Part shown: piece after piece, positions 12,480-56,215 of the stretch | Layout: each line of letters opens with the position of its first letter | Position numbering within the stretch: the stretch's first letter is position 1 | Origin: Haliotis cracherodii | Taxonomy: Eukaryota | Direction: 5' to 3' | Assembly (NCBI RefSeq): GCF_022045235.1 | Contig: NW_027266343.1 | Coordinates: 51,488,134 to 51,552,133 of the forward strand | DNA: 64,000 nt | Made by a program: the position numbers and the translations under genes | The notes under the pieces: generated by a model | What the model was told of the DNA's origin: nothing | The model's database searches: none | What the model saw: the letters and a program-made list of their open reading frames with translations, nothing else

Positions 12480-13700
12480 GCGTGAATGAATGATCATGAT
12501 TGGTTGAATGGATAGTTGCGATTGTGTGGATGAATTTTCCTGGATGTGTTGATGAATGTTCGTAAGTGGGTGGATATTCATGGTGAAGTGGATGGATGTT
12601 CGGGGTAATGTTGATGGATGTTCGTGGTGAAGTGGATGGATGTTCGTGGTGAAGTGAATGGATGTTCGTGGTGAAGTGGATGGATGTTCGTGGTGAAGTG
12701 GATGGATGTTCGTGGTAAGGTGGATAAATGTTCGTGGTGAAGTGGATTGATGTTCGTGGTGAAGTGGATGGATGTTCGTGGTAAGGTTGATGGATGTTCG
12801 TGGTAAAGTGGATGGATGTTCGTGGTGAAGTGGATGGATGTTCGTGGTGAAGTGGATAGATGTTCGTGGTGAAGTGGGTGCATGTTCTTGATGAAGTGGA
12901 TGGATGATCGTGGTAAGGTGGATTAATGTTCGTGGTGAAGTGGATGGATGTTCGTGGTGAAGTGGATGGATGTTCGTGGTGAAGTGGATGGATGTTCGTG
13001 GTAAGGTGGATGGATTTTCGTGGTAAAGTGGATGGATGTTCGTGGTGAAGTGGGTGCATGTTCTTGATGAATTGGATGGATGTTCGTGGTAAGGTGGATT
13101 AATGTTCGTGGTGAAGTGGATGAATGTTCGTGGTGAAGTGGATGGATGTTCGTGGTGAAGTGGATGAATGTTCCTGGTGAAGTGGATGAATGTTCCTGGT
13201 GAAGTGGATGAATGTTCCTGGTGAAGTGGATGGATGTTCGTGGTGAAGTGGATGAATGTTCGTGGTTAAGTGGATGGATGTTCGTGGTGAAGTAGATGGA
13301 TGTTCCTGGTGAAGTGGATGAATGTTCATGGTGAAGTGGATGAATGTTCGTGGTGAAGTGGATGGATGTTCGTGGTGAAGTGGATGTATGTTCGTGGTAA
13401 GGTGGATTGATGTTCGTGGTGAAGTGGATGGATGTTCGTGGTAAGGTGGATGGATGTTCGTGGTAAAGTGGATGAATGTTCGTGGTGAAGTGGGTGCATG
13501 TTCTTGATGAAGTGGATGGATGTTCTTGGTAAGGTGGATTAATGTTCGTGGTGAAGTGGATGGATGTTCGAGGTAAAGTGGATGAATGCTCATGGTGAAG
13601 TGGGTGCATGTTCCTGATGAAGTGGGTGGATGTTTGTGGTTATCTTGATGAATGTTCCTGGTGAAGTAGATGGATGTTCGTGGTGAAGTGGATGAATGTT
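12480..13700. repeat. 22-bp tandem repeat (gtggatggatgttcgtggtgaa), about 50 units
   Basis: Direct reading. A 66-bp (3-unit) frame periodicity creates the His/Pro-rich pseudo-ORFs 12409-13609. Confidence 0.9.
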
Positions 13701-14063
13701 CATGATCAGGAGGGGATGAGCTTTGGGCTAAATAGATGCTTATTATGGATGATTATTTATGGTTAGACGGATGAACGTGCGGGATCTGTATATAAAATGC
13801 GTTGGACGGCCAAAAAAAACCCCAATATTGATTTGGCTTTGTGGGGGATTGAGAGAGTATGTAAAACAATTTTACGATTCCGGCTATATCAGGAGCATGT
13901 GTTTATGAATCACTATCAAAAAGTGATAATAAAATATAACACGGGAACATGTGACACAAGTCAAAATAGGGAATTGCATCGTGCATGATTTTTTGTCACT
14001 GATATATCATATTTTTTGCCTAAATGTCTTATCCCCAAATTACACACGGGTGTTATATATGAG

Positions 14064-17807: not shown

Positions 17808-18070
17808 TTGTTTGTTTGTTTATTTGCCGCACTCAGCAATATTCCAGCTATATGACGGCGGTCTGTAAATAATCGAGTCCGGACCAGACAATCCAGTGAA
17901 TAATATCATGAACATCGATCCATGCAATTGGGATACGATGACATGCATCAACCAAGTCAGCAAGCCTGACCACCCGATCCCGTTAGTCGCCTCTTACGAC
18001 ATGCATAGTCGCCTTTTACGGCACGCATTGGCTGCTGAAGACCTATTCTACCCCGGATCTTCACGGGTGG
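17808..18070 (-). mobile_element. SINE family C
   Basis: (gtttgttt) tail, then the body consensus. Confidence 0.75.
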
Positions 18071-18484: not shown

Positions 18485-19140
18485 ATGATTCCGACAAGAT
18501 CATAAACACGTGTCCATGAATCACTATCCAATATTACACTATCATAAGCTTGTGTCCATGAATCACTATCCGATATTACACTATCATAAACATGTGTCCA
18601 TGAATCCCTATCCGATATTACACTATCATAAACATGTGTCCATGAATCACTATCCGATGTTACACTATCATAAGCATGTGTCCATGAATCACTATCCGAT
18701 ATTACACTATCATAAGCATGTGTCCATGAATCACTATCCGATATTACACTATCATAAGCATGGTTCCATGAATCACTATCCGATATTACACTATCATAAA
18801 CATGTGTCCATGAATCACTATCCGATATTACACTATCATAAACATGTGTCCATGAATAACTATCCGATATTACACTATCATAAGCATGGTTCCATGAATC
18901 ACTATCCGATATTACACTATCATAAACATGTGTCCATGAATCACTTTCCGATATTACACTATCATAAGCATGGTTCCATGAATCACTATCCGATATTACA
19001 CTATCATAAGCATGGTTCCATGAATCACTATCCGATATTACACTATCATAAACATATGTCCATGAATCACTATCCGATATTACACTATCATAAACATGTG
19101 TCCATGAATCACTATCCGATATTACACTATCCGAAACTCC
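18485..19140. repeat. 42-bp tandem repeat (gtccatgaatcactatccgatattacactatcataaacatgt), about 15 units
   Basis: Direct reading. The unit is a multiple of 3, so both strands give long artefactual ORFs (18469-19242 and 18510-19166). Confidence 0.9.
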
Positions 19141-24486: not shown

Positions 24487-24870
24487 GGACATCCTCTGTG
24501 GTCTCGTGGTAGAGCGTCCGTTCGAAGAGCGGAAGATCCGATGTTCGATCCCCGGCCGCGTCACACCAAATGACGTTAAAAGATGGTACTTGTTGTTTAC
24601 CAGACCCGTGAAGATTCCGGGGTAGAATAGGTCTTCAGCAACCCATACTTGCCGTAAAAGGCGACTATGCTTGTCGTAAAAGGCGACTAACAGGATCGGG
24701 TGGTCAGGCTCGCTGACTTGGTTGATATATGTCATCGATCCCAATTGCGTGGATCGATGCTCATGATGTCAATCACTGGATTGTCTGATCAAGACTCGAT
24801 TATTTTACAGACCGCCGACATATAGCTGGAATATTGCTGAGTGCGGCGTTAAACAACAAACAGAATAAAT
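24487..24870 (+). mobile_element. SINE family C (tRNA-like head + ~250 bp body + aaacaacaaac tail), apparently full length
   Basis: The head tggtctcgtggtagagcgtccgttcgaagagcggaag...gttcgatccccggccgcgtcacacca has a B-box. The body is shared with 13 other copies. The tail is gcggcgttaaacaacaaac. Confidence 0.75.
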
Positions 24871-30378: not shown

Positions 30379-30904
30379 CTAATGAATAAGTAAGTTTGTG
30401 TTCTGCGGAATAGCCTATAATATGTTTTTTTATACATCGATGGCGTTGACGACTTCTTTTACCCCGAGTATTTGCGCTGCATTTTTTTACCATCTCTTCT
30501 GAACGTCTAGGTTTATTCTCTTGCAGAGTCTTTGGCGATGCTAAGTTTGAACTTTGAGTAATTGAATTGAAATTACACCCATTGCCAACTTGTTTACATG
30601 CGTTTTTATATTTTGGCGTAATTTAAATGTGAAAAATATCAAGTATATTGTTAAAGACACACTTAATTCCGTGATTTAATTAAGACATTTCTTCACAAAA
30701 ATAAGAAGGGGACATTTCTTTTATTTACATTTCCGCGAACACCTGGTCTAACCACTGACTTTCAATTCAAGTATTTTTGTTTCGCTACTTGAGTGGGCCA
30801 TCCGTCTTTGGAACAAAATCAGGTCAACAACAAATAGTTTCAATTGACGATTGTTGCAATTGCTGACGTTTGTTTTGTTTTAGTTTTTTTTATTTGGTTT
30901 TCTT

Positions 30905-31160
30905 TGTGTGTTTAACGCCGCAGTCAACAATATTTCATCTATATGACGGCGGTCTGTAAATAATCGAGTCTGGACCAGACAATCCAGTGACTGACACCAT
31001 GAGCATCGATCTACGCAGTTGGGATACGATGACATGCATCAACAAAGTCAGCGAGCCTGACCACCCGATCCCGTTAGCCGCTTTTTACGACACGCATATT
31101 CGCCTTTGACGGCTAGCATGGGTTGCTGAAGACCTATTCTATCCCGGATCTTCCCGGGCC
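30905..31160 (-). mobile_element. SINE family C in an SLC23 intron
   Basis: Body consensus. Confidence 0.75.
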
Positions 31161-37074: not shown

Positions 37075-37262
37075 ACAATCTGTAAATAATCGAGTCTTGA
37101 TCAGACAATCCAGTTATTGACATCATGTTCATCGATCCACGCAGTTGGGATACGATGACATGCATCAACCAAGTCAGCGAGCCTGACCACCCGTTAGTCG
37201 CCCCTTACGACAAGCAATGGTTACTGAAGACCCCGGATTTTACCCCGGATCTTCACGGGTCT
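37075..37262 (-). mobile_element. SINE family C, truncated
   Basis: Body consensus. Confidence 0.65.
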
Positions 37263-37441
37263 CTCAAGTTTTACATAGTCCCTGCACAAATACATGCTCT
37301 GATATTTTTGTCACCTTATTTTATATCAAATGGAGCAGCTGTTTAGTAAAAACAAATAATCTTATTTCTTTCAGTGTAAAATACACGCATTTTAAGTCTC
37401 TGCCTATGTTAATAATTTCAGTAACTGTGCTGTTTGTTGTT

Positions 37442-37675
37442 TATCGTCGCACTCTGCAATATTCCAGCCATATGATGGCTATCTGTAAATAATCGACCAG
37501 ACAATCCTGTGACTGATATCATGAGCATCTATCTACATAAATGAAATACGATGACATGCATCAACCAAATCATCGAGCCTGACCACTCGATCCCGTTAGT
37601 CGCCTCTTACGACAAGCCAGTAACGGCAAGCATTGGTTGCTGTAGACCTATTCTAACCCGGATCATCACGGGTCA
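37442..37675 (-). mobile_element. SINE family C, 33 bp downstream of SLC23 exon 1
   Basis: Body consensus. The copy ends at 37675 and the exon-1 donor is at 37708. Confidence 0.7.
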
Positions 37676-37708: not shown

Positions 37709-37855
37709 CTGTAAGGCAGCACTGAACAGCACCACACACGGCGGGTTTTGAATCAGGGTATAGTGCAGTCTTTCATCCTCATTGTCAACCAGCTTCTCTA
37801 CTCCTCTGTCAAGATCCAGGTCGTGGCCATTGTTTACTCGCTTCTTGCCAGTCAT
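37709..37855 (-). CDS. SLC23A-like: SLC23-family transporter, coding exon 1 (ATG at 37855; ...NPPCVVLFSAALQ)
   Basis: ATG is preceded by an in-frame TAG; the donor CAG|gtatgg lies at 37708/37707. The translation matches the SVCT N-terminal motif PPWxLCIxLGLQ. The ORF-track entry 37673..37864 starts at a TTG. Confidence 0.8.
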
Positions 37856-37879: not shown

Positions 37880-37960
37880 TGAAAATGCATGTGTTTCATG
37901 TAATATACGGCGTTTTATCCATGTCAGAATGATGAGATCTGATTGGTCCACGTGATCTTG
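37880..37960 (-). promoter_or_regulatory. Putative core promoter of the SLC23-like gene (TATA-like tatatta, CCAAT box, CACGTG E-box)
   Basis: On the minus strand: CCAAT at 37942-37946, E-box cacgtg at 37949-37954, and tatatta at 37901-37907, about 50 bp upstream of the ATG. A ttttcag just 5' of the ATG means an upstream non-coding exon cannot be excluded. Confidence 0.3.
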
Positions 37961-38334
37961 ATACAATACTATGTATCCCGCCCTGAAGGGCAATAAATTA
38001 CTCAGGGGGAGAATATATCCTTTATACCCCGCCATAAACAAGACAGACTGCACGTGGATTTCTCGTGATCCTGCTACAACTTATAGTGTACTGTATAAGT
38101 TCTGTTATATCCCTCTGCCTGACAGGTGGAATAGTTGAGATGTTGAACAATACATTACACTCGTACATAGTTCCATGACATGACAATACCTAGTGACATG
38201 GCAATAAGTTCGCCGAAAATCCTAATGGTATTATTAAAGTGACATTATACCTATGCCATGGCTTCATTGCAACCACACTACGATGATAGAAGTCATCTAT
38301 ACATGACTTATACATGACTCATTGCCATTTTAAC

Positions 38335-41276
38335 ATAACCAACTCTCTAATGATGAAGTAAGTCACCAGCTCTCTCCAATGATGAAGTAAGTCACCAACT
38401 CTCTCTAATGATGAAGTAAGTCACCAACTCTCTCTAATGATGAAGTAAGTCACAAACTCTCTCTAATGATGAAGTAAGTCATCCACTCTCTAATGATGAA
38501 GTAAGTCACCAACTCTCTAATGATGAAGTAAGTCACAGCTCTCTCCAATGATGAAGTAAGTCACCAACTCTCTCTAATGATGAAGTAAGTCACCAGCTCT
38601 CTCCAATGATGAAGTAGGTCACCAGCTCTCTCTAATGATGAAGTAAGTCATCCACTCTCTAATGATGAAGTAAGTCACCAACTCTCTAATGATGAAGTAA
38701 GTCATCCACTCTCTAATGATAAAGTAAGTCATCAACTCTCTAATGATGAAGTAGGTCACCAGCGCTCTCCAATGATGAAGTAGGTCACCAGCTCTCTCCA
38801 ATGATGAAGTAGGTCACCAGGTCTCTCTAATGATGAAGTAAATCAACCACTCTCTAATGATGAAGTAAGTCATCAACTCTCTAATGATGAAGCAAGTCAC
38901 CAACTCTCTGTAATGATGAAGTAAGTCACCAACTCTCTCTAATGATGAAGTAAGTCACCAACTCTCTCTAATGATAAAGTAAGTCACCAACTCTCACAAA
39001 TGATAAAGTAAGTCACCAACTCTTTCTTATGATAAAGTAAGTCATCCACTCTCTAATGATGAAGTAAGTCACAACTCTCTAATGATGAAGTAAGTCACCA
39101 ACTCTCTCTAATGATGAAGTAAGTCACCAACTCTCTCCAATGATGAAGTAGGTCACCAGCTCTCTCCAATGATGAAGTAGGTCACCAGCTCTCTCCAATG
39201 ATGAAGTAAGTCAACCACTCTCTAATGATGAAGTAAGTCACCAACTCTCTAATGATGAAGTAAGTCACCAACTCTCTTTAATGATGAAGTAAGTCACCAA
39301 CTCTCTCTAATGATGAAGTAAGTCACCAACTCTCTCTAATGATAAAGTAAGTCACCAACTCTCACAAATGATAAAGTAAGTCACCAACTCTTTCTTATGA
39401 TAAAGTAAATCACCAACACTCTCTAATGATAAAGTAAGTCACCAACTCTCTAATGATGAAGTAAGTCACCAACTCTCTTTAATGATGAAGTAAGTCACCA
39501 ACTCTCTCTAATGAAACAGTAAATAACCAACTCCCTCTTATGATAAAGTAAATAACCAACTCTCTCTAATGAAACAGTAAATAACCAACTCCCACTTATG
39601 ATGAAGTAAGTCACCAACTCTCTCTAATGATGAAGTAAGTCACAAACTCTCTCTAATGATGAAGTAAGTCATCCACTCTCTAATGATGAAGTAAGTCACC
39701 AACTCTCTAATGATGAAGTAAGTCACAGCTCTCTCCAATGATGAAGTAAGTCACCAACTCTCTCTAATGATGAAGTAAGTCACCAGCTCTCTCCAATGAT
39801 GAAGTAGGTCACCAGCTCTCTCTAATGATGAAGTAAGTCATCCACTCTCTAATGATGAAGTAAGTCACCAACTCTCTAATGATGAAGTAAGTCATCCACT
39901 CTCTAATGATAAAGTAAGTCATCAACTCTCTAATGATGAAGTAGGTCACCAGCTCTCTCCAATGATGAAGTAGGTCACCAGCTCTCTCCAATGATGAAGT
40001 AGGTCACCAGCTCTCTCTAATGATGAAGTAAGTCAACCACTCTCTAATGATGAAGTAAGTCACCAACTCTCTAATGATGAAGTAAGTCACCAACTCTCTT
40101 TAATGATGAAGTAAGTCACCAACTCTCTCTAATGATGAAGTAAGTCACCAACTCTCTCTAATGATAAAGTAAGTCACCAACTCTCACAAATGATAAAGTA
40201 AGTCACCAACTCTTTCTTATGATAAAGTAAGTCATCCAGTCTCTAATGATGAAGTAAGTCACCAACTCTCTAATGATGAAGTAAGTCACCAACTCTCTCT
40301 AATGATGAAGTAAGTCACCAACTCTCTCCAATGATGAAGTAGGTCACCAGCTCTCTCCAATGATGAAGTAGGTCACCAGCTCTCTCCAATGATGAAGTAA
40401 GTCAACCACTCTCTAATGATGAAGTAAGTCACCAACTCTCTAATGATGAAGTAAGTCACCAACTCTCTTTAATGATGAAGTAAGTCATCAACTCTCTCTA
40501 ATGATGAAGTAAGTCACCAACTCTCTCTAATGATAAAGTAAGTCACCAACTCTCACAAATGATAAAGTAAGTCACCAACTCTTTCTTATGATAAAGTAAG
40601 TCACCATCTCTCTCCAATGATGAAGTAAGTCACAACTCTCCAATGATGAAGTAAGTCACCAACTCTCTCTAATGATGAAGTAAGTCACCAGCTCTCTCCA
40701 ATGTTGAAGTAGGTCACCAACTCTCTCTAATGATGAAGTAAGTCATCCAGTCTCTAATGATGAAGTAAGTCACCAACTCTCTAATGATGAAGTAAGTCAT
40801 CCACTCTCTAATGATAAAGTAAGTCATCAACTCTCGAACGATGAAGTAAGTCACCAGCTCTCTCCAATGATTAAGTAAGTCACAACTCTCTAATGATGAA
40901 GTAAGTCACCAGCTCTCTCCAATGATGAAGTAGGTCACCAGCTCTCTCTAATGATGAAGTAAGTCATCCACTCTCTAATGATGAAGTAAGTCACCAACTT
41001 TCTAATGATGAAGTAAGTCATCCACTCTCTAATGATGAAGTAAATAACCAACTCCCTCTTATGAAAAATTAAATAACAAACTCTCTCTCATGATGAAGTA
41101 AATTACCAACTCTCTCCTTAGATATAGTAAGTAGCAAACTCTCTCTTATGATAAAGTAAAAAACCAACTCTCTCTAACGAAACAGTAAACAACCAAATCT
41201 TTCTTATGAAAAAAATTAAATAACCAACTTTTTCTCATGAAAAAGTAAATAACCAACTCTCTCTCTCTTATGATAA
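38335..41276. repeat. 29/30-bp satellite (about 100 units, aatgatgaagtaagtcaccaactctctct) with a 1190-bp higher-order repeat
   Basis: 38411 onward equals 39601 onward at an exact 1190-bp offset. ORFs 38619-38801 and 39809-39991 are identical artefacts. There is an inner ~368-bp sub-period (ctcacaaatgataaag at 38993/39361 and 40183/40551). The array continues briefly after the SINE at 41553-41575. Confidence 0.9.
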
Positions 41277-41552
41277 AAGGGGGGGGGGGGGGGCACGGGT
41301 GGCCCAGTCGTCTAAGGCGCCGCGATTCGCGTCCCTTGGGCTCGCCAGAAACCTATGATTGTGGGTTCGAATCCCGGTTCGCCCCAATTATGTTTCTAGG
41401 TTTGTCAGCACCATACCCGTGCTCGTGGGTTTCACCGAAGTGGTAAACGTCTGAGACCTGCATCACTTCGGGCTTTCCTCCCACATTAAGCTGACACGCC
41501 GCGATATAACTGGAATACTGTTAAAAGCGGCGTTAAACCCAACTCACTCACT
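41277..41552 (+). mobile_element. SINE family A inserted into the 30-bp satellite
   Basis: A G-run precedes the head. The satellite unit cttatgataaag is duplicated on both sides as a TSD (41265-41276 and 41553-41564). Confidence 0.85.
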
Positions 41553-42007
41553 CACTTATGATAAAGTAAACAAGCATGAAATACTCACATCCCTCGCCAA
41601 TATGACATGTCGGGTTGTGTGCAATGTAAATGGCCTAATTGCAGCACTAAAAAAAGTTATTACTGTCGTTGTTTTTCCATCTGCAGTTTATGATAGAATA
41701 TGTAACTGAATTTGTAATGAGTAAGGATGAGACATATGGACGAACAACTTCTTTATTACAATTAGGAGCGATGGTTTCGGTCAAGCAAGTGAAGTACAGA
41801 GTATGGTTTACAAGAATATATAGTGTTTATACAGTTGAGTAGGTTTAAGATCAGTTACACTGTTGTATTTGTAATGAGTTGTGTTTCTGCATGAAGTTAG
41901 TCAGTGAATGCAACAACTGTGTCCATGACACTTTTGGAGGAACATACACTCAAGCAATGCAGAACTTACCAACAAGAAAGGAAATGTATTCAATACTGTG
42001 AGATGAC

Positions 42008-43870
42008 ATTATGTGCCAAGTTTGGTGAAGAAATATAGTACGGTTTTCAAGATCTGCTCCGGAAACGAGGACTACCGCCATTTTCAGTCTAAATCAAAGT
42101 CGTTGCCATGGAAACTCAAAAAATAAAAAATAAATAAATTCCAAACTATCAAAAGGCACCAGTTCACCGCTAGATCTATCTATCTGCCAAGTTTGGTGAA
42201 GAAATATAAGTACGGTTTTCAAGATCTGCTCCGGAAACGAGATCTACCGCCATTTTCAGTATAAATCAAAGTCGTTGCCATTAAAAACTAAAAAAAACAA
42301 AAAAAGATTAAATCACAAAACTATCAAATAGCACCAGTTCACCACTAGATCTATCTATGTGCCAAGTTTGGTGAAGAAATATGGTATGGTTTTCAAGATC
42401 TGCTCCGGAAGCGAGGACTACCGCCATTTTCAGTCTAAATCAAAGTCGTTGCCGTGGAAAGTCAAAAAATAATATTTTGAAAAATCCCAAACTATCAAAA
42501 GGCACCAGTTCACCACTAGATCTATCTTTGTGCCAAGTTTGGTGAAGAAATATGGTATGGTTTTCAAGATCTGCTCCGGAAACGAGGACTACCGCCATTT
42601 TCAGTCTAATTCAAAGTCGTTGCCATGGAAACTCAAAAAATAATAAAAAATTAAATTCCAAACTTTCAAAAGGCACCAGTTCACCACTAGACCTATCTAT
42701 GTGCGAAGTTCGATGAAGTAATATAAGTACGGTTTTCAAGATCTGCTCCGGAAACGAGGACTACCGCCATTTTCAGCCTAAATCAAAGTCGTTGCCATGG
42801 AAACTCAAAAAATAATAAAAAATTAAATTTCAAACTATCAAAAGGCACCAGTTCACCACTAGATCTATCTATGTGCGAAGTTTGATGAAGAAATATAAGT
42901 ACGGTTTTCAAGATCTGCTCCGGAAACGAGGACTACCGCCATTTTCAGTCTAAATCAAAGTCGCTGCCATGGAAACTCAAAAAATAATATTTTGAAAAAT
43001 CCCAAACAATCAAAAGGCACCAGTTCACCGCTAGTTCTATCTATCTGCCAAGTTTGGTGATGAAATATAAATACGGTTTTCAAGGCTCAATGCCTTGGTT
43101 AAATTTTCTAAATAGCAAAAGGCACCAGTTCAGCATGACAGACCTGCAAAGTTTGATGAAAAAATATTGAACGGTTTTTGAGTTATGCAGCGGAAACAAA
43201 CCCTACCCTCACAGAACCTAAGTCCAACTTGTTGCAATGAAAACGTAAAAAAATTTTTTTTATAAAATTCCTAAATAGCAAAAGGCACCAGTTCAGTATG
43301 TGCCTAGTAGACATGCAAAGTTTTGTAAGAAAGTATTTAACAGTTTTTTAGTTATGCTCCGGAAACGAACACCACGCTTATAGAACCTAAGTTCAACTTG
43401 CTGCCATGGAAACGTAAAACATAAAAATTTATAAAACTCCTAAATAGCAAAAGGCACCAGTTCAGTATGTGTCTGGTAAACATGCAAAGTTTTGTAAGAA
43501 ATTATTTAACGGTTTTTGAGTTACGCTCCGGAAACGAACAACACCCTTATGGAACCTAAGTTCAACTTGTTGCCATGGAAACGTAAAACATAAAAATTTA
43601 TAAAACTCCTAAATAGCAAAAGGCACCAGTTCAGTATGTGTCTGGTATACATGCAAAGTTTTGTAAGAAATTATTTAACGGTTTTTGAGTTACGCTCCCG
43701 AAACGAACAACACCCTTATGGAACCTAAGTCCAACTTGTTGCCATGGAAACGTAAAACATAAAAATGTATAAAATTCCTAAATAGCAAAAGGCACCAGTT
43801 CAGCATGAGTCTGATAGACATGCAAAGTTTCGTAGAGAAATATTTGACGGTTTCTGGGTTATACTCCTGA
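42008..43870. repeat. ~175-bp satellite, two diverged subfamilies (alpha 42008-43080, beta 43080-43870)
   Basis: Alpha units start gccaagtttggtgaagaaatat at 42015, 42189, 42363, 42533, 42704, 42871 and 43047. Beta units start ctaaatagcaaaaggcaccagttcag at 43108, 43270, 43440, 43612 and 43780. Both share aaaaggcaccagttca, ctccggaaacga and gttgccatggaaac. Confidence 0.85.
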
Positions 43871-43877
43871 AACGATT

Positions 43878-43894
43878 TCGGGACGCACACACGC

Positions 43895-43952
<58 letters not shown>
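43878..43952. repeat. (CA)n microsatellite at the end of the 175-bp satellite
   Basis: Direct reading. It creates the Cys/Val-repeat pseudo-ORFs 43690-44077. Confidence 0.9.
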
Positions 43953-43957
<5 letters not shown>

Positions 43958-45064
43958 CGGACGGAACCGATTTTCTATCTCCCCCGCCAACTCCGTTGGG
44001 GCGGGGGATAATGATCGTGGCACATTAATTTTATCGGTGTACGATAAAAAGCGGGAAATGTTACTATTTTTCAACACAGAAAAAATTCTCGGAGAACACT
44101 TAGACGTGTCTTTGTTAAAACCGGTTTAATAATTGCAGTTAAATTTACACCATCAAATAGGAAATTTAATATTCTCCACATCTGCGTAATTTTATAGCCA
44201 GAGGTATATCCAGTGCCGCGTGAGCGCAATTCTCGCACAACCTTCACTTTTCCGATCTTAGGAAAATGTGCGTCAGCAAAAAAAACCTCGGCATCCATAG
44301 AGAATACTACACCCATTCTCGTTAGATACAATTTTTATGAAACGAGTGGACTTCCTATGGTATCTGACCGAGCGAATGAGTGTGGCATTTTATTTATTAC
44401 CAACGTTAAATATATATTTAGGTGTAAATACATAACAACTTTCGTTCGTTGGCAGAACAAACTGAAACCGGTTGCAAAATCTGGTTGCGCATGAATATTG
44501 ATATATGCCCAAATATGGGCATTGTTGACATTTCTGTGCATACGTATTAACAACATGTTCCTGCTGTTGTGATTGCAAACGTAACAGCATCGACGCTCAA
44601 GATCCTTTTGGAACAGTTTCTTCAACGTATGGTAATGCAAGCGCCATGTTGTAAGTACGCAGGACACCTATAAGAAAATTTGAAAAGACACATTTGCGCC
44701 GCGCTTTGAATATCGGACCAACAGTCGGTCACTCGCACTGCCGGGGTATTTAAAATGGCTCGGTTTCCTTGATCTATCAGCTAAATTTATATCCGGTCCG
44801 TACCATTTTGAAAGAGGGAATTCAGGGTGTTCGCCAAAGACATTCATCTTAACTGTACCACCTTGTACTGAAGTCGTGAAAATCAACAAACTTAAGTCTG
44901 CTTGCATGTCAGTGACAGCTTCGAACGAAGGGCAAGGTCAACACCGGAATAAGAAAAGACAACCGTGATCTACTTACAGCGTTTTGTGCTAGAGACAGGG
45001 AATGTTATTGTTCACATTTGGGATATTTTGGTCCACATAGCCAGAAATCAGACACACGTAAAAG

Positions 45065-46681
45065 TGGAAAATTGTATGCTATATTTGTAGATTTTTCGAA
45101 AGCATTCGATTCAGTCTGTAGAGATAAGTTATGGTATCTATTTAATTCACATGGTGTCAGTAATAAAATGGGTAAATTGTTATGTGGTATTTATAAGGAA
45201 GTTAAATCATGTGTTAAACAAAACGGCATGTATTCAGATTCTTTTATATGTCATACTGGTGTACGCCAAGGATGTGTATTAAGCCCTTTTTGTTCTGTTT
45301 TTTTTTATATTATTAATGAGCTTGCAGCCCAAATCAAAAGAAATTATGATGATGGTATACAATTACATCCTGAACTTATAAAAATATTTATGTTACTATT
45401 TGCAGATGATATAATCATGTTCTCGAGTACTGTAAAAGGTTTACAAACTTTGATAAATCAGCTAGAATTGTACTGTGATACGTGGAAACTTAATGTTAAT
45501 CTAGATAAGACAAATATTGTTGTATTTAGCAAGAGAAATACGCCGTCAAAAATTGAAAAGTGGTACTTTCGGGGACAATTACTCCAAACTGAAACCTCAT
45601 ATAAATATCTTGGTGTAATATTTTCAAGTAAATTATCATGGAACCGACATATATGTAATGCAGCAATACAAGCTAAAAAGATGCTTTTGGGCATTTTACA
45701 AACGTTTGAACATTTTAGCGAGTGTGCTTATAAATCTTTCTTCAAAATCTTTGACACAAAAATAACTCCTATTCTTTCCTATGGCTCGGAAATATGGGGT
45801 TTTGCAGAGGCTAAAGAAATTGAATCCGTACATTTATACGCATGCAACAGATTTCTTGGTGTTAAACATAGTACGTCTAACGTAATGGTTTATGGTGAAT
45901 GTGGTCGCATGCCCTTGTATATATATTACTTCTTAAAAATCATAAGATACTGGTTAAAATTACTAAAAATGCCGGTAGGTAGATTGCCAAAATAATGTTA
46001 TAATATGATGCTATTGTATGAAAAGAATGGAGATCAAAATTGGGCATACAATGTTAAATGTCTACTGTATAAATGTGGGTATTGTTACATCTGGGAAAAC
46101 CAATGTTTCTTAGAGAATCATGCCATGTTCATATCGAAAATAAGGCAGACGCTTTTTGACATGTACTTTCAAACATGGAGATCTACTGTAGATGTTTCTA
46201 ACAAATGCGAATATTATAGATATTTTAAAATGCAAATATGCACAGAAAAATATTTAACTGATGTAAATATAAGAAAATGCAGAATATCATTAACACAATT
46301 TAGATGCAGCTCACACAGGTTAATGGTTGAAGGTGGCAGGCACAACAAAATACCCAAATGTTTAAGATTATGTAAACAATGTTCTTTAAATGATGTCGAA
46401 GATGGCTTTCATTTTCTACTTGTATGTTGTAAAAATGATAATTTAAGGAAAAAATATATTGAACAGAAATACTATGTACATCCAAATAAATACATGTTTA
46501 TCTCTTTAATTTCACATGTGAGCAAAACGGCTACACAAAATCTCTCTCTCTCTCTTTATATATCATGCCATGTTATTAAGATATGAATCCTTGTAACATT
46601 CCTAACCGCTTCCACATTGTCATGTATTCTGTACTATTGGCCGGTGGCCTTACAGTTATATATGAATAAACTGATTGATTG
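45065..46681 (+). mobile_element. LINE fragment (5'-truncated RT with FADD motif plus C-terminal Cys/His domain) nested in the YR-element composite
   Basis: ORF 45018-45995 contains YAIFVDFSKAFDSV...VRQGCVLSP...LLFADDIIMF. ORF 46005-46586 is the C-terminal domain. The flanks are contiguous in the copy at 63.06-63.10 kb, so this is an insertion, with the short direct repeat gacacac at both junctions. Confidence 0.75.
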
Positions 46682-47617: not shown

Positions 47618-48600
47618 TCATGATTTGTACAGTGCAACTGGACATCGTGGGTCGTTGGTAGACCATGCACGGGGAGGCGCGTCACGGACATTACGTGTGT
47701 CATTGCCTGTGCGTGTCTTTGTTTGACGTTCATTGTACTCAATGAACTCTCTACCATCAGAGTCGAGTTTTAGAACTACATCTCCCCACCTCATCAAGTG
47801 ATGAGGTTTTACACTTCGGAGACCAAAGTGTCTCGTGTTATTCCACCATAGTGTGTTGAGAATGGATTCTGGGTTATTAGGACCCAATTCGTTTGCATCA
47901 AACATCATGTTGATTTCATCATTGGACAGACTTTCGGCCCTATTTGGTAAGTTTCCTCGCCCTTCTCTTTTTAGAACTTTTTGTTTGGTTGACAGGACTT
48001 CGCGAAGTTTTGAAAACTCACGATCCTGCAACAAGGACTTGTCATATCCCCTTGATTTTAGAAATCTGTCAATACTTGATAGCTTTGATGTAAAAGAGCT
48101 TGGTTCATAGTCCTGGCCGTTAGATTTCTTTATCAAGATGAAAAAGCTACACAATACATCGCATAATTCATTTGGGGGTATGGTTTCAACCGGCCTAGAA
48201 TCAGCGTTGGCGTTCATGAATTTCTCATAATACTTATGTCATATTGGGTTTTTCTCCAGGTGTTTTGATTTCGATTTTGATGTATGAAATTGTCAATGTT
48301 TGAACAGTCATACTGATACACATTGTCACCTGGTATATCATCAAAAAAGTCATCCTTAAATAGTTCCTCATAGACACATTCTGGAACAGTGTCAAATGGG
48401 TTTAAAGCGGATATAGGGGCCGACGATACAGTCTTAGGAACAACAGTAAGTCTATGCCGTCCTACTTGCCTCATTTCACCATTCAGAGTTTTGATATTGT
48501 AGGCATTGAATGTTCCAAGTGGTTGAACAATAGAAAGCACCCGTCCTCTAACGTCTCCGTCAATTTTGACACAATCGTTAACACGAATAGTGGTAGCCAT
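47618..48600 (-). CDS. Tyrosine recombinase-like ORF (Crypton/DUF3504-type N-terminal domain + Box I Arg + beta-hairpin Lys; C-terminal catalytic half missing; one frameshift at 48214-48217)
   Basis: ORFs 48214-48600 and 47618-48217 carry ...GQDYEPSSFTSKLSSIDRFLKSRGYD...LPNRAESLSNDEINMMF...LWWNNTRHFGLRSVKPHHLMRWGDV...YNERQTKTRTG. The pattern matches the SAM-like plus core-catalytic N-terminal half of Crypton/DIRS YRs and the DUF3504 domain, from memory. No HxxR...Y follows before the hairpin. Confidence 0.45.
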
Positions 48601-50382
48601 CTTTCGATCTGCGCTAATATTTTAGCAAACGATCGTGCGGGAGATGCTGGTTAAAAAAACAAAACACCATTTCGTGTCATGACATGTATTAAAATTGGTT
48701 GTGATTGTTTGTAAATGTCTCTCGTTTTCACGAGAATCCTACAGTTCTGCTTCGTAGTAGTAAAGAGTTGTGAAAGCGAATGACGTCTCGTGATCGTTTA
48801 TGAATGAAAAAAGTAGTTCCGGTCCAATCAATAAAACGAGGTCAACCTTGTACGACACACGTGTGACGTACGGATTTAGTATCTTACCACCTGTATCTTC
48901 ACCACGTGGGTAATAAAATAGAGGATTCATCATGAGTGTTTTTTAATATGGGAAATATCAACCGAGTCTTAGTTAATCGGTATTTGCCGAGCCTTTAGCC
49001 AATCAACGAATTAAATGTTCATGCATGGTGATGGGACCGGGCTACTAGTATATGACGTCATGCTGTGCCCGGGATGCACGAGGAGTGACGTAATGCATGT
49101 TTCTTACACACCTGTGGGTGAGAAACCCATTTGAGATAACTGGTATCAAATATATGTTTCAGATCGAATTCCAGGCCCGTGATTGGCTACTCCATGGTGA
49201 TGACCTGAGGTCAGATGATGACGGACTACTTTCCTGAGTGTAAGACATTCAAGTTTCACGTGCTTCAGTCGAATGTTCACCTACGTCTGTATTGAACCAC
49301 AGGACCGTGTGATTTATAATAAAAATAAACTCATCCTCGTCTGCGAGTTTGATTGTTATTATCATCAGTTACATTACCTGTTGTTATGTCAACGTTAACA
49401 TTTTTTCGGGTGTTAACTTCCTGGATGCCACAGCGACACGTGTGTTTCCTCTTCAACACTCACTTCGAAGTCGAATAAAATTCAAAATACATCACGCAAA
49501 CTAATACACAGCACAGTTTTGAATTCCCCCTTCTGTTTATCATTTACTGTCATTTTAGGCAAAGCACATTTACTAAAAGTGACTTCTAAAAATTAGGTAC
49601 ATCGTAAATCTCGTCAAATCACAATTCACGGCGTTATTAACTGTGTGTTTAGAAAATCTAAATATCGGATATTTACTCGAAAAAATAAAGTAGAAAAATA
49701 GCATATTAGTGATGACGGGCATCAAATCACTAATGATAATTCTTCAACGTCGCTGATAAGCCTAGAATCGTTTAGAGTGTTTGGGAAAATACGCATACAC
49801 GAACGCCGAAGTGTACGTTCCGCCATATTGGATTGTGTTTACAAAATGCCGGTTATGAGACGCCTATTCGATCAAGTATATTTCAAACTCAGCTGCTATA
49901 CATGCATCCCTGAATTCCTCATACATTTGAGAAACAAATGACAAATGGTCTTTGCCACCAATGCAAATTATCTAGATGAAATCATACGAAATAAATTAGG
50001 TATGGAAACGAAAACTGTTCTCGGAAAACTGTAAATAAAGCAAAATTCAGATTTTAACACTGTGTTGAGGTACTTTCGGCTAATTTTTGCATACATTGGC
50101 TCGATCGCGCGTTTGAGAATAATCATGGGAAGAGCATCGTTGCACTAAGCTAGTATGGAATTACACATGTATACATTACAATGATGTGGTAAATTCAACA
50201 GAAGCCGTAAAAGTTTCCGTCCTGTGTGACGCCATGACTGACGCTAAATCACGCAGAACGATGACGGTAGTTATCTGCATTTCTGACTAATTCTCTTTGT
50301 TACATTCGAAAACATGGTAAACAAATAACAGTACGCAGATTGTCAGAATGTTTCTGATTACTTACGTGACACATTTATGTAT

Positions 50383-51885
50383 ACTCACACGCAAAAGAAA
50401 CGCGAGTCGAGTATGCAGTATACATGTTATTTATTTTCAACAGTAAAGACAAGAAATACTAATAGGGCAAGATTGACAAAAATTTGACTGAAGACAGTTT
50501 AATGGATTAAAAGGCAGATGACATAATTGGTTTTTTTTGGCTTACGCAGTTTCGGGTCAATACCCAAAATGTCAGTCAATACCTGGTGTGACCACCATTA
50601 GCATTGATCACTGCCACACGTCTCCTGTACATTGAGTGGATCAGACGATTTGTGAAGGCCCTAGGGATCCTCCTGCACACATCCAGAGCAGCTGTGCGTA
50701 GTTCATCGGCAGTTGTAGGGACTGGGCGCACAATGTGCAGACGCCTTTGAACCTCACCCCACAAGTGTTCGATTGGGTTCAGATCAGGGCTGAGGGCTGG
50801 CCACGGTAGATGTTGTGTTGTTGCAGAAAGGCCATGGTAGCTCTGGCAACATGGGGACGAGCGTTGTCCTGCTTAAAAATGTGTTGTTGATGTTGTGCAA
50901 AAAATGGCACAACGTGGGGTCTGATCACTTGGTCGATATACCGCTGAGCAGTGACGCCGTGTCCCCGACCTTAACCAACATTCAGAAAGCACATGGGTCC
51001 AAGTCTCGCATTAAGTCCAATCCCTGCCCATATCATGACGCTAGGTCCACCCCATGGATCCCTTTCCACAACGTTTCTGTCAGCGAAACGATCACCTCGA
51101 CGCCGCCAAATTCTGACTCTTCCGTCTGCATGGGAGACACAAAAGCTACTTTCAGAGAAGATGACACGCCTCCACTCACGATGACGCCAACTGCGATGAC
51201 CCTGTGCCCACTGAAGTCGTGCTTGTCGATGCTGTGGTTGGAGAACAGGACGACGTGCTGGTCGGCGACATCAGAGGTTGTTGGAACGGAGACGTCGGAT
51301 CACAGTGTCCCGGCTAATGTGTCGATTATGTGTTCCTATGGTCTGTCGAGCACTTTCACTTGCATTTAGGAACAGATGTCGCTGGTGTTGACGGGTAACC
51401 TGCCGATCTTGTCGAGGTGTGGTGACCCTATGACGACCGCTCCGAGGAAGGTCATCTGTGGTCTGTGTAGCATTGTATCGATGCAGGAGACGGTAAATTG
51501 TGGTTATGTTAACTTTGAAATGACGGGCAACATCTTGGACAGACTCTCCAGCTTGCAAACGTCCGGTAGCCTGCATGAGTTGGGCGTGGCATTGTTGACC
51601 AAGGAGTGGTAGGTCCAAGAATCGGCCACAGTTTTATACCCACAACAGGTCGTGACAGTTCGTGCATTTTCGATTTCGCGAGAAATGGTTGCATGATACC
51701 CACATATTCATTGACATGGTGCGTTTGGGCGATTCGTTTTCTATGTTGCGTTTTTTACTCGGGCCAAAAATATTGATAACACCATCAGGCTTCACTACAT
51801 GCTAAAACTCGTATAAATTTATGGTTCCGTGTTTGTTACCTATTTGCTTAAAACCACTTGCGTTTCTTTTGCGTGTGAGTAAATA
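50383..51885 (-). mobile_element. Tc1-like DNA transposon with about 26-bp TIRs and a decayed transposase
   Basis: TIR tatactcacacgcaaaagaaacgc at 50383-50406 matches the reverse complement at 51860-51885. Minus-strand ORFs give an N-terminal HTH (51618-51271, ...HFKVNITTIYRLLHRY...RSGR) and a C-terminus ...AVINANGGHTRY (50764-50576). The middle is frameshifted. Confidence 0.75.
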
Positions 51886-55639: not shown

Positions 55640-56215
55640 ACCTTTCAAATGAATCACGAATCCATTTCTTTGACAGGAAACCATCTCGTCGTTATTATTT
55701 TCTCGACAAGAAACCATTTCGTCGGCAATATTTCCTCGACAAGAACCCATCTCGTCGGCATTATTTCCTCGACAAGAAACCATCTTGACGGCATTATCTC
55801 CTCGACAAGAAACCATCTCGTCGGCATTATTTCCTCGACAAGAACCCATCTCGTCGGCATTATTTCCTCGACAAGAACCCATCTCGTCGGCATTATTTCC
55901 TCGACAAGAAACCATCTCGTCGGCAATATTTCCTCGACAAGAAACCATCTCGTCGGCATTATTTCCTCGACAAGAACCCATCTCGTCGGCATTATTTCCT
56001 CGACAAGAACCCATCTCGTCGGCATTATTTCCTCGACAAGAAACCATCTCGACGGCATTATCTCCTCGACAAGAAACCATCTCGTCGGCATTATCTCCTC
56101 GACAAGAACCCATCTAGTCGGCAATATTTCCTCGACAAGAACCCATCTCGTCGGCATTATCTCCTCGACAAGAAACCATCTCGTCGGCATTATTTCCTCG
56201 ACAAGAACCTGCTAT
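55640..56215. repeat. 33-bp tandem repeat (catctcgtcggcattatttcctcgacaagaacc), about 17 units, inside the long-TIR element
   Basis: Direct reading. It generates ORFs 55397-56218, 55574-56113 and 55654-56190 on both strands. Confidence 0.9.

Follow-up and report, generated by a model that had tools for sequence, protein, structure and literature searches.

The window analyzed here comprises 64,000 nucleotides of Haliotis cracherodii DNA (contig NW_027266343.1, positions 51,488,134 to 51,552,133), and all positions given below follow its own numbering. It harbors a gene on the minus strand and, upstream of its first coding exon, a long tandem array that is interrupted near its far end by a SINE (Table 1). 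The concatenated minus-strand exons match the Pfam family Xan_ur_permease (PF00860) with an E-value of 5.4e-63 and a score of 213 bits and, as judged from this predicted protein, the gene is of the SLC23 / nucleobase-ascorbate transporter type. Of the named proteins, two from Haliotis rubra that are annotated as "solute carrier family 23 member 1-like" come closest to it (63-64% identity); a protein search conducted with exons 1 and 2 alone gave no match.

Upstream of the SLC23-type gene, 488 bp separate its first ATG from the start of the array, in agreement with the 480 bp that a preliminary description of this DNA had reported. The same description had placed a CCAAT box, an E-box and a TATA-like sequence at 37900-37955, and we found all three there (ATTGG at 37942, CACGTG at 37949, TATATT at 37913-37908). 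Its statement that the array sits directly on top of the putative promoter is overstated: the array flanks these putative motifs and, seen from the gene, begins 317 bp beyond the gene-strand TATAAA and about 400 bp beyond the CCAAT/E-box pair. An acceptor-like ttttcag is present at 37886-37880, 25-31 bp upstream of the ATG, so that the gene may possess a non-coding exon further upstream and, with it, another promoter.

To describe the array we relied on TRF, which delimits it at 38343-41264 with a period of 29, 103.2 copies, 86% matches, 5% indels and a score of 3850. The preliminary description had proposed this very check, and its estimate of about 100 tandem units is borne out. The consensus unit, ATGATGAAGTAAGTCACCAACTCTCTCTA, is repeated head to tail. 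For the segmentation into monomers, the array was aligned to a tandem consensus and then cut at the unit boundaries; monomers of 29 bp (n = 57) and 27 bp (n = 32) prevail, accompanied by a few of 28 bp (n = 3) and 26 bp (n = 3). What had been called a 3-kb satellite of 29/30-bp units is therefore real as an array, with a length of 2.9 kb, while the unit lengths are to be amended to mostly 29 and 27 bp. The G+C content of the array is 37%, versus 41% for the window. A unit that falls within about 10-100 bp and is arranged head to tail, and an array of 2.9 kb (the customary range being about 0.5-30 kb) that lies between unique flanks beside a gene, are the hallmarks of a minisatellite.

Table 1. 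Position of the minisatellite array, its internal segments and neighboring features in the window.
Feature	Position	Strand	Basis
Tandem array, 22-bp unit, 52 copies	12564-13701		
Tandem array, 42-bp unit, 15 copies	18499-19131		
First coding exon of the SLC23-type transporter gene: ATG 37855-37853, 49 codons, GT donor 37708-37707	37709-37855	-	ORF, sequence
Unique upstream DNA with promoter-like motifs (putative)	37908-38056	-	motif positions
TATATT	37913-37908	-	motif position
CCAATCAG (CCAAT box on the gene strand; ATTGG at 37942), directly after CACGTG	37946-37939	-	
CACGTG (E-box), two	37954-37949 and 38056-38051	-	motif positions
GC box GGGCGGG	~37981-37975	-	motif position
TATAAA	38026-38021	-	motif position
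Minisatellite array, ~103 head-to-tail units of 29 or 27 bp	38343-41269	+	TRF, monomer segmentation, composition
Copy 1 of the 1.1-kb duplication, 39 monomers; sub-blocks 38743-39110 and 39111-39478	38408-39508	+	gapped self-alignment, monomer string
Three old-type monomers, GTAAATAACC replacing GTAAGTCACC	39509-39597	+	monomer list
Copy 2 of the 1.1-kb duplication, 1190 bp start to start; sub-blocks 39933-40301 and 40302-40669	39598-40698	+	self-alignment
Twelve more young-type monomers, ~90% like part of the duplicated unit	40699-41031	+	self-alignment, monomer list
Degenerate old-type monomers, decayed right edge	41032-41269	+	tandem-consensus alignment (z = 42-46 versus shuffles), monomer list
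Left target-site duplication of the SINE, TATGATAAAAG, monomer sequence	41269-41279	+	read from sequence
SINE with GGTTCGAATCC B-box-like motif, (ACTC)n tail and 13-bp deletion in its head	41289-41556	+	BLAST, alignment
Right target-site duplication TATGATAAAG (41557-41566), then end of the truncated last monomer (41575)	41557-41575	+	
Tandem array, 172-bp unit, 6.2 copies	42010-43084		
Tandem array, 169-bp unit, 4.6 copies	43100-43875		
Tandem array, 33-bp unit, 16.5 copies	55664-56207		

The interior of the array contains a large duplication. Ungapped autocorrelation is highest at lag 29 (65%) and next highest at lag 1190 (59%), the latter standing far above the other long lags. By gapped self-alignment, segments 38408-39508 and 39598-40698 are 98.4% identical over 1102 columns, with 16 mismatches and 2 gaps; the remaining in-register lags reach at most 91.4%, and the monomer lag of 29 itself gives 89.4%. 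Hence, the 1190-bp diagonal that had been foreseen for a self-comparison is present in both types of analysis. Identity falls off abruptly outside the duplication, to 77% in the 65 bp that precede the two copies and to 70% in the 89 bp that follow them. Exactly between the copies sits an 89-bp island (39509-39597) whose monomers resemble the degenerate ones found at the right edge. There is no clean third 1.1-kb unit in the array; its remaining 570 bp or so are related to the duplicated segment and align with it at about 90-91%.

Nested within each 1.1-kb copy are two sub-blocks of 368 bp, each comprising 13 monomers, just as the preliminary description had it for a sub-block of about 368 bp; for instance, 38733-39057 matches 39101-39425 at 94%. 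When the four sub-blocks are compared with each other, corresponding pairs (1a-2a, 1b-2b) are 97.6-97.8% identical and non-corresponding pairs 95.1-96.8%; therefore, the 368-bp duplication preceded the 1190-bp duplication. The same arrangement can be read from the succession of monomer types. Beginning with EA at the left end, copy 1 reads AKBCLAEFBCBM.D....AAGH..ANDDJCIAAGH..IA and is followed by three old-type units; copy 2 reads AKBCLAEFBCBMDDFJCIAAGH.CANDDJCI.AGH..AE and is followed by twelve young units and about nine degenerate ones. The 1190-bp feature is thus one duplication with inexact copies, as opposed to a higher-order repeat (HOR), which has multiple copies. An HOR satellite has at least three tandem units that resemble each other far more than their monomers do, in arrays of tens of kb to Mb that are usually located at many or at heterochromatic loci; here we find two copies within a 2.9-kb, gene-adjacent array that occurs once in the data examined. 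Of the "exact 1190-bp HOR" of the preliminary description, the 1190-bp lag is upheld by the 98.4% identity, the attribute "exact" is contradicted by the 16 mismatches and 2 gaps, and the term HOR does not apply to two copies.

The two edges of the array differ in character. At the left, the boundary is abrupt: aligned to the tandem consensus, the adjoining 100 bp scored no better than shuffled sequences (z = 1.3). We had considered the presence of degenerate monomers in this left flank and rejected it, since this z value is not significant. At its very left end the array has a partial unit (…ACATAACCAACTCTCTA) that, like the units of the island and of the right edge, is of the old type. On the right, the array fades out in degenerate units that bear GTAAATAACC where the young units possess GTAAGTCACC.

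The SINE resides in these right-edge monomers. It is flanked on both sides by TATGATAAA(A)G, a 10- to 11-bp target-site duplication of monomer sequence, which bears out the earlier statement that it had inserted into the array with the satellite unit as its target-site duplication. About 18 bp of array follow it, up to position 41575, close to the 20 bp or so noted before. A BLAST search with 41270-41600 revealed at least seven further matches in the window; their identity is 82-95%, and three are full length. An alignment of the family members showed that they have common ends, GGGGGCACGGG at the 5' side and (ACTC)n at the 3' side, and three other copies in the window possess target-site duplications of 9-12 bp. 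Dispersed copies with common ends and a target-site duplication identify this element as a genuine SINE insertion. The SINE body is also found in one of the two H. rubra loci considered below (L001). A run of 15 G residues (41279-41293) precedes the copy in the array; other copies have five to six G residues there.

The array SINE is the least diverged copy in the window, differing from the consensus of the others at 4 of 253 bases (1.6%). Its head displays a B-box-like GGTTCGAATCC and an A-box-like TGGCCCAGTCG motif; neither ARAGORN nor Rfam provided a tRNA match. Searches of the entire window with ARAGORN and with Rfam at gathering thresholds returned nothing, as did Rfam in E-value mode for a full-length SINE copy, and a full-text literature search with a 14-mer of the SINE found no paper. 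SINEs of gastropods and bivalves, among them Haliotis SINEs with terminal short repeats, for example (CACCT)n, have been described (PMC4758252). The array SINE is similar to these elements in its size of about 270 bp, its B-box-like motif, its short-repeat tail, its variable target-site duplications and its many copies; in contrast to them, its tail consists of (ACTC)n, and no named family was matched to it.

Because the target-site duplication is derived from the array, the SINE inserted later than that part of the array. The preliminary description had concluded from this that the insertion postdates array formation. This holds for the edge; since the SINE sits in old, degenerate edge monomers, it dates only these and not the young core. 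The SINE is 1.6% removed from its consensus and the 1.1-kb copies are 1.6% apart, so that these values do not separate the insertion and the duplication in time.

Tandem arrays are common in this region. Together with the array upstream of the SLC23-type gene, the window contains six of them, which total 7.1 kb or 11% of its length, and the five others reside in introns and intergenic DNA. Directly downstream of the array under study lie the 172-bp and 169-bp arrays and a (CA)n run. Loci of SLC23 paralogues in H. rubra also bear arrays, with units of 43-45 bp. Two H. rubra loci (L001 and L002, contig QXJH01000680.1) have interspersed-repeat families in common with the window (80-93% identity); they contain no DNA collinear with the window, and the 29-bp unit is absent from them. 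We considered these H. rubra matches as the orthologous locus and rejected this assignment, as they represent 63-64% identical paralogues without collinear DNA. Given that arrays are common both in the window and at the H. rubra loci, they are a background feature of these genomes, and the proximity of one of them to a gene is unremarkable.

The unit itself was encountered nowhere else in the material surveyed. It has no second copy in the remaining 61 kb of the window (both strands) or in 56.6 kb of H. rubra DNA, and the array is bordered on both sides by sequence that occurs only once in the window. In short-word BLAST searches, young and old units resembled neither the SINE nor other repeats of the window nor the H. 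rubra DNA. When we refer to the array as locus-specific, this label is based on about 120 kb of related sequence, which is a very small sample. A 16-mer of the unit led to no paper in a full-text literature search, and the literature on satellites and minisatellites of abalones held nothing bearing on the 29-bp unit.

In minisatellites, decayed edges, a homogenized interior and nested duplications are the product of unequal exchange and slippage. We consider it likely that the array is a locus-specific, neutral minisatellite in intergenic DNA, and we infer that it grew by slippage and by unequal exchange between misaligned repeats; neutrality is taken here as the default. Its history may have begun with a short array of old-type units (ATGAWAAAGTAAATAACCAAC...), whose remnants would be the left end, the three-unit island and the approximately nine decayed units of the right edge. 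A derived unit (…GTAAGTCACC…), in its 29- and 27-bp versions, would then have expanded in the interior. Within it, a block of 13 monomers (368 bp) would have been duplicated, and subsequently a segment of 39 monomers (1.1 kb) containing both sub-blocks, leaving copies that are 1190 bp apart from start to start. Finally, the young SINE would have retrotransposed into the last edge monomer and thereby duplicated 10-11 bp of it. We count against neutrality the distance of less than 0.5 kb between the array and the start codon, and the uniform direction of the GTAAGT and AAGTAGGTCA motifs.

The duplicated core of the array invites a comparison with the HORs of alpha-satellite DNA. Alike are the monomers, which are about 86-89% similar to each other, and the existence of a longer period at which the identity jumps to about 98%. 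Alpha-satellite HORs are built from 171-bp monomers and are present in tens to thousands of copies in megabase-sized centromeric arrays, whereas the array studied here has two copies of a 39-monomer segment, extends over 2.9 kb and lies beside a gene.

Among the alternatives to a neutral minisatellite, we regard it as unlikely that the array is a cis-regulatory VNTR, which would tune the SLC23-type gene either as a platform for binding factors or as a chromatin block that excludes nucleosomes, in the manner of the VNTR at the human insulin gene (INS). The preliminary description had suggested that satellite arrays so close to a transporter promoter may influence chromatin state or expression; nothing in our analysis lends support to such an influence. 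The INS minisatellite is composed of 14- to 15-bp units and lies upstream of the start of insulin translation, at a distance of 596 bp (PMC2474835). The geometry of the abalone array, 488 bp upstream of the ATG, is comparable, and both arrays have short head-to-tail units with variant units interspersed. The likeness is positional only, however: the INS array is reported to vary in length, to bind factors and to affect expression, the unit sequences are unrelated, and the abalone array is A+T-rich whereas that of INS is G-rich. The motif content of the array offers a further argument for regulation. GTAAGT is present in 76 copies and AAGTAGGTCA in 14 copies (in one unit variant), all on the plus strand, with each unit carrying either AAGTAAGTCA or AAGTAGGTCA in this single orientation; AATAAA is absent from both strands of the array. 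Yet some motif is inevitable in any 29-bp unit that is repeated 100 times, similar arrays are found in the window within introns and elsewhere between genes, and the ttttcag acceptor-like site implies that the real promoter may be elsewhere. The AAGTAGGTCA motif fits the ROR/HR3-type extended half-site AWNTAGGTCA, with all 14 copies perfect, and the GTAAGT motifs correspond to consensus U1-type 5' splice-site cores. Both lie on the strand that upstream-antisense transcription, diverging from the SLC23 promoter, would read, and one could imagine from these motifs that they might stabilize or elongate an antisense transcript or recruit a receptor of the HR3/ROR type, with array length serving as a heritable tuning knob for the transporter gene; we regard this specific scenario as highly improbable.

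Many mollusc satellites are tied to Helitron- or MITE-like elements, and the array could accordingly represent the tandem repeats inside a transposable element, or else one member of a satellite family with dispersed copies. Its sharp left boundary, the two arrays (172 and 169 bp) and the (CA)n run that adjoin it directly downstream, and the richness of this mollusc genome in interspersed repeats would be compatible with such an origin, which we nevertheless judge to be very unlikely. Unlike satellites associated with mobile elements, the abalone array exhibits, in the sequence examined, neither element termini nor dispersed copies nor any similarity of its unit to other repeats: the unit and flanks lack a second copy in the window or in the 56.6 kb of H. 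rubra DNA, an exact 26-mer of the unit had zero matches in metagenome and viral contig collections, and inspection by eye revealed no terminal repeats or target-site duplication around the entire array. An SVA-like composite of VNTR and SINE was also considered and rejected, as the SINE possesses its own target-site duplication. Long tandem arrays are error-prone in genome assemblies, and the 15-G homopolymer beside the SINE could be a sequencing artefact; one may therefore ask if the 1190-bp duplication, or the length of the array, reflects mis-joined or duplicated reads in the repeat. A duplicate created by the assembly should be identical to its original; the two copies, however, differ at 18 positions that are spread along their length, their sub-blocks show a consistent nested pattern, and three distinctive old-type monomers separate them. 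We regard an assembly artefact as highly improbable.

Taken together, the array upstream of the SLC23-type gene is a minisatellite of an ordinary kind, in which one internal duplication is recent, and it matters little beyond annotation. It is likely to be a length-polymorphic marker beside a transporter gene, and on a small scale it neatly shows the beginnings of higher-order structure in a minisatellite, built up by one duplication nested in another. If the length of the array did affect SLC23 expression, the INS VNTR would have a counterpart among invertebrates; none of our findings points in this direction. A 60-amino-acid minus-strand ORF that runs through the array had no match in a protein database search. 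The array and its sister arrays yield spurious ORFs of 40-300 codons, which gene callers should mask.

The region upstream of SLC23, the minus-strand Xan_ur_permease-type gene, is occupied by tandem repeats over nearly its whole length between 38.3 and 44.0 kb. Directly past the SINE that lies at the right edge of the 29/27-bp array, we found two further arrays with units of 172 and 169 bp and a CA run (see table). Since the two arrays are about 70-73% identical to each other, we regard them as diverged relatives. At its 5' junction, the SINE in the array has a run of 15 G (41279-41293), compared to five to six G in other copies; this run may have arisen by untemplated addition during retrotransposition or by subsequent slippage, or it may be a sequencing error in a homopolymer.

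Inspection of the minus strand revealed an acceptor-like site (ttttcag/A, 37880-37886) positioned 25-31 bp upstream of the SLC23 ATG. If this candidate acceptor is used, the gene would have an exon ahead of its first coding exon, which would place the promoter motifs (37908-38056) inside an intron. SLC23 intron 1 contains two copies (37079-37216 and 37430-37674) of a second interspersed family, which is SINE/MITE-like, about 140-260 bp in length, and present at at least 10 further sites in the window. The exon-1 donor is located about 35 bp from the end of one of these intronic copies. This family is also carried by Haliotis rubra, where it was detected at both SLC23 paralogue loci (L001, 19843-20029; L002, 21345-21521) with matches of 80-88%.

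Repeats and open frames in the window and at the H. rubra SLC23 paralogue loci
Feature	Position	Strand	Remark
Second interspersed family, example copies	17809-18068, 24603-24863, 30903-31158		
172 bp x 6.2 array	42010-43084		directly past the array's SINE
169 bp x 4.6 array	43100-43875		after the 172-bp array
(CA)36 run	43886-43958		after the 169-bp array
22 bp x 52 minisatellite	12564-13701		between SLC23 exons
42 bp x 15 minisatellite	18499-19131		between SLC23 exons
33 bp x 16.5 minisatellite	55664-56207		
Long open frame	44916-46583	+	resembles non-LTR retrotransposon reverse transcriptase, by eye
Long open frame	47621-48621	-	another element-like ORF, by eye
Long open frame	50579-51633	-	resembles Tc1/mariner-type transposase, by eye
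H. rubra minisatellites	L001 1618-2100, 25563-26123; L002 2572-2764		

Farther upstream, three long open frames resemble, by eye, those of mobile elements, and no neighbouring host gene on that side of SLC23 was recognised in the window. Three other minisatellites are present; those with 22- and 42-bp units are intronic, given their position among the SLC23 exons. They give rise to long spurious minus-strand ORFs of up to 308 codons. The H. rubra paralogue loci possess minisatellites of their own (45 bp x 11, 43 bp x 13, and 96 bp x 2), which are unrelated.
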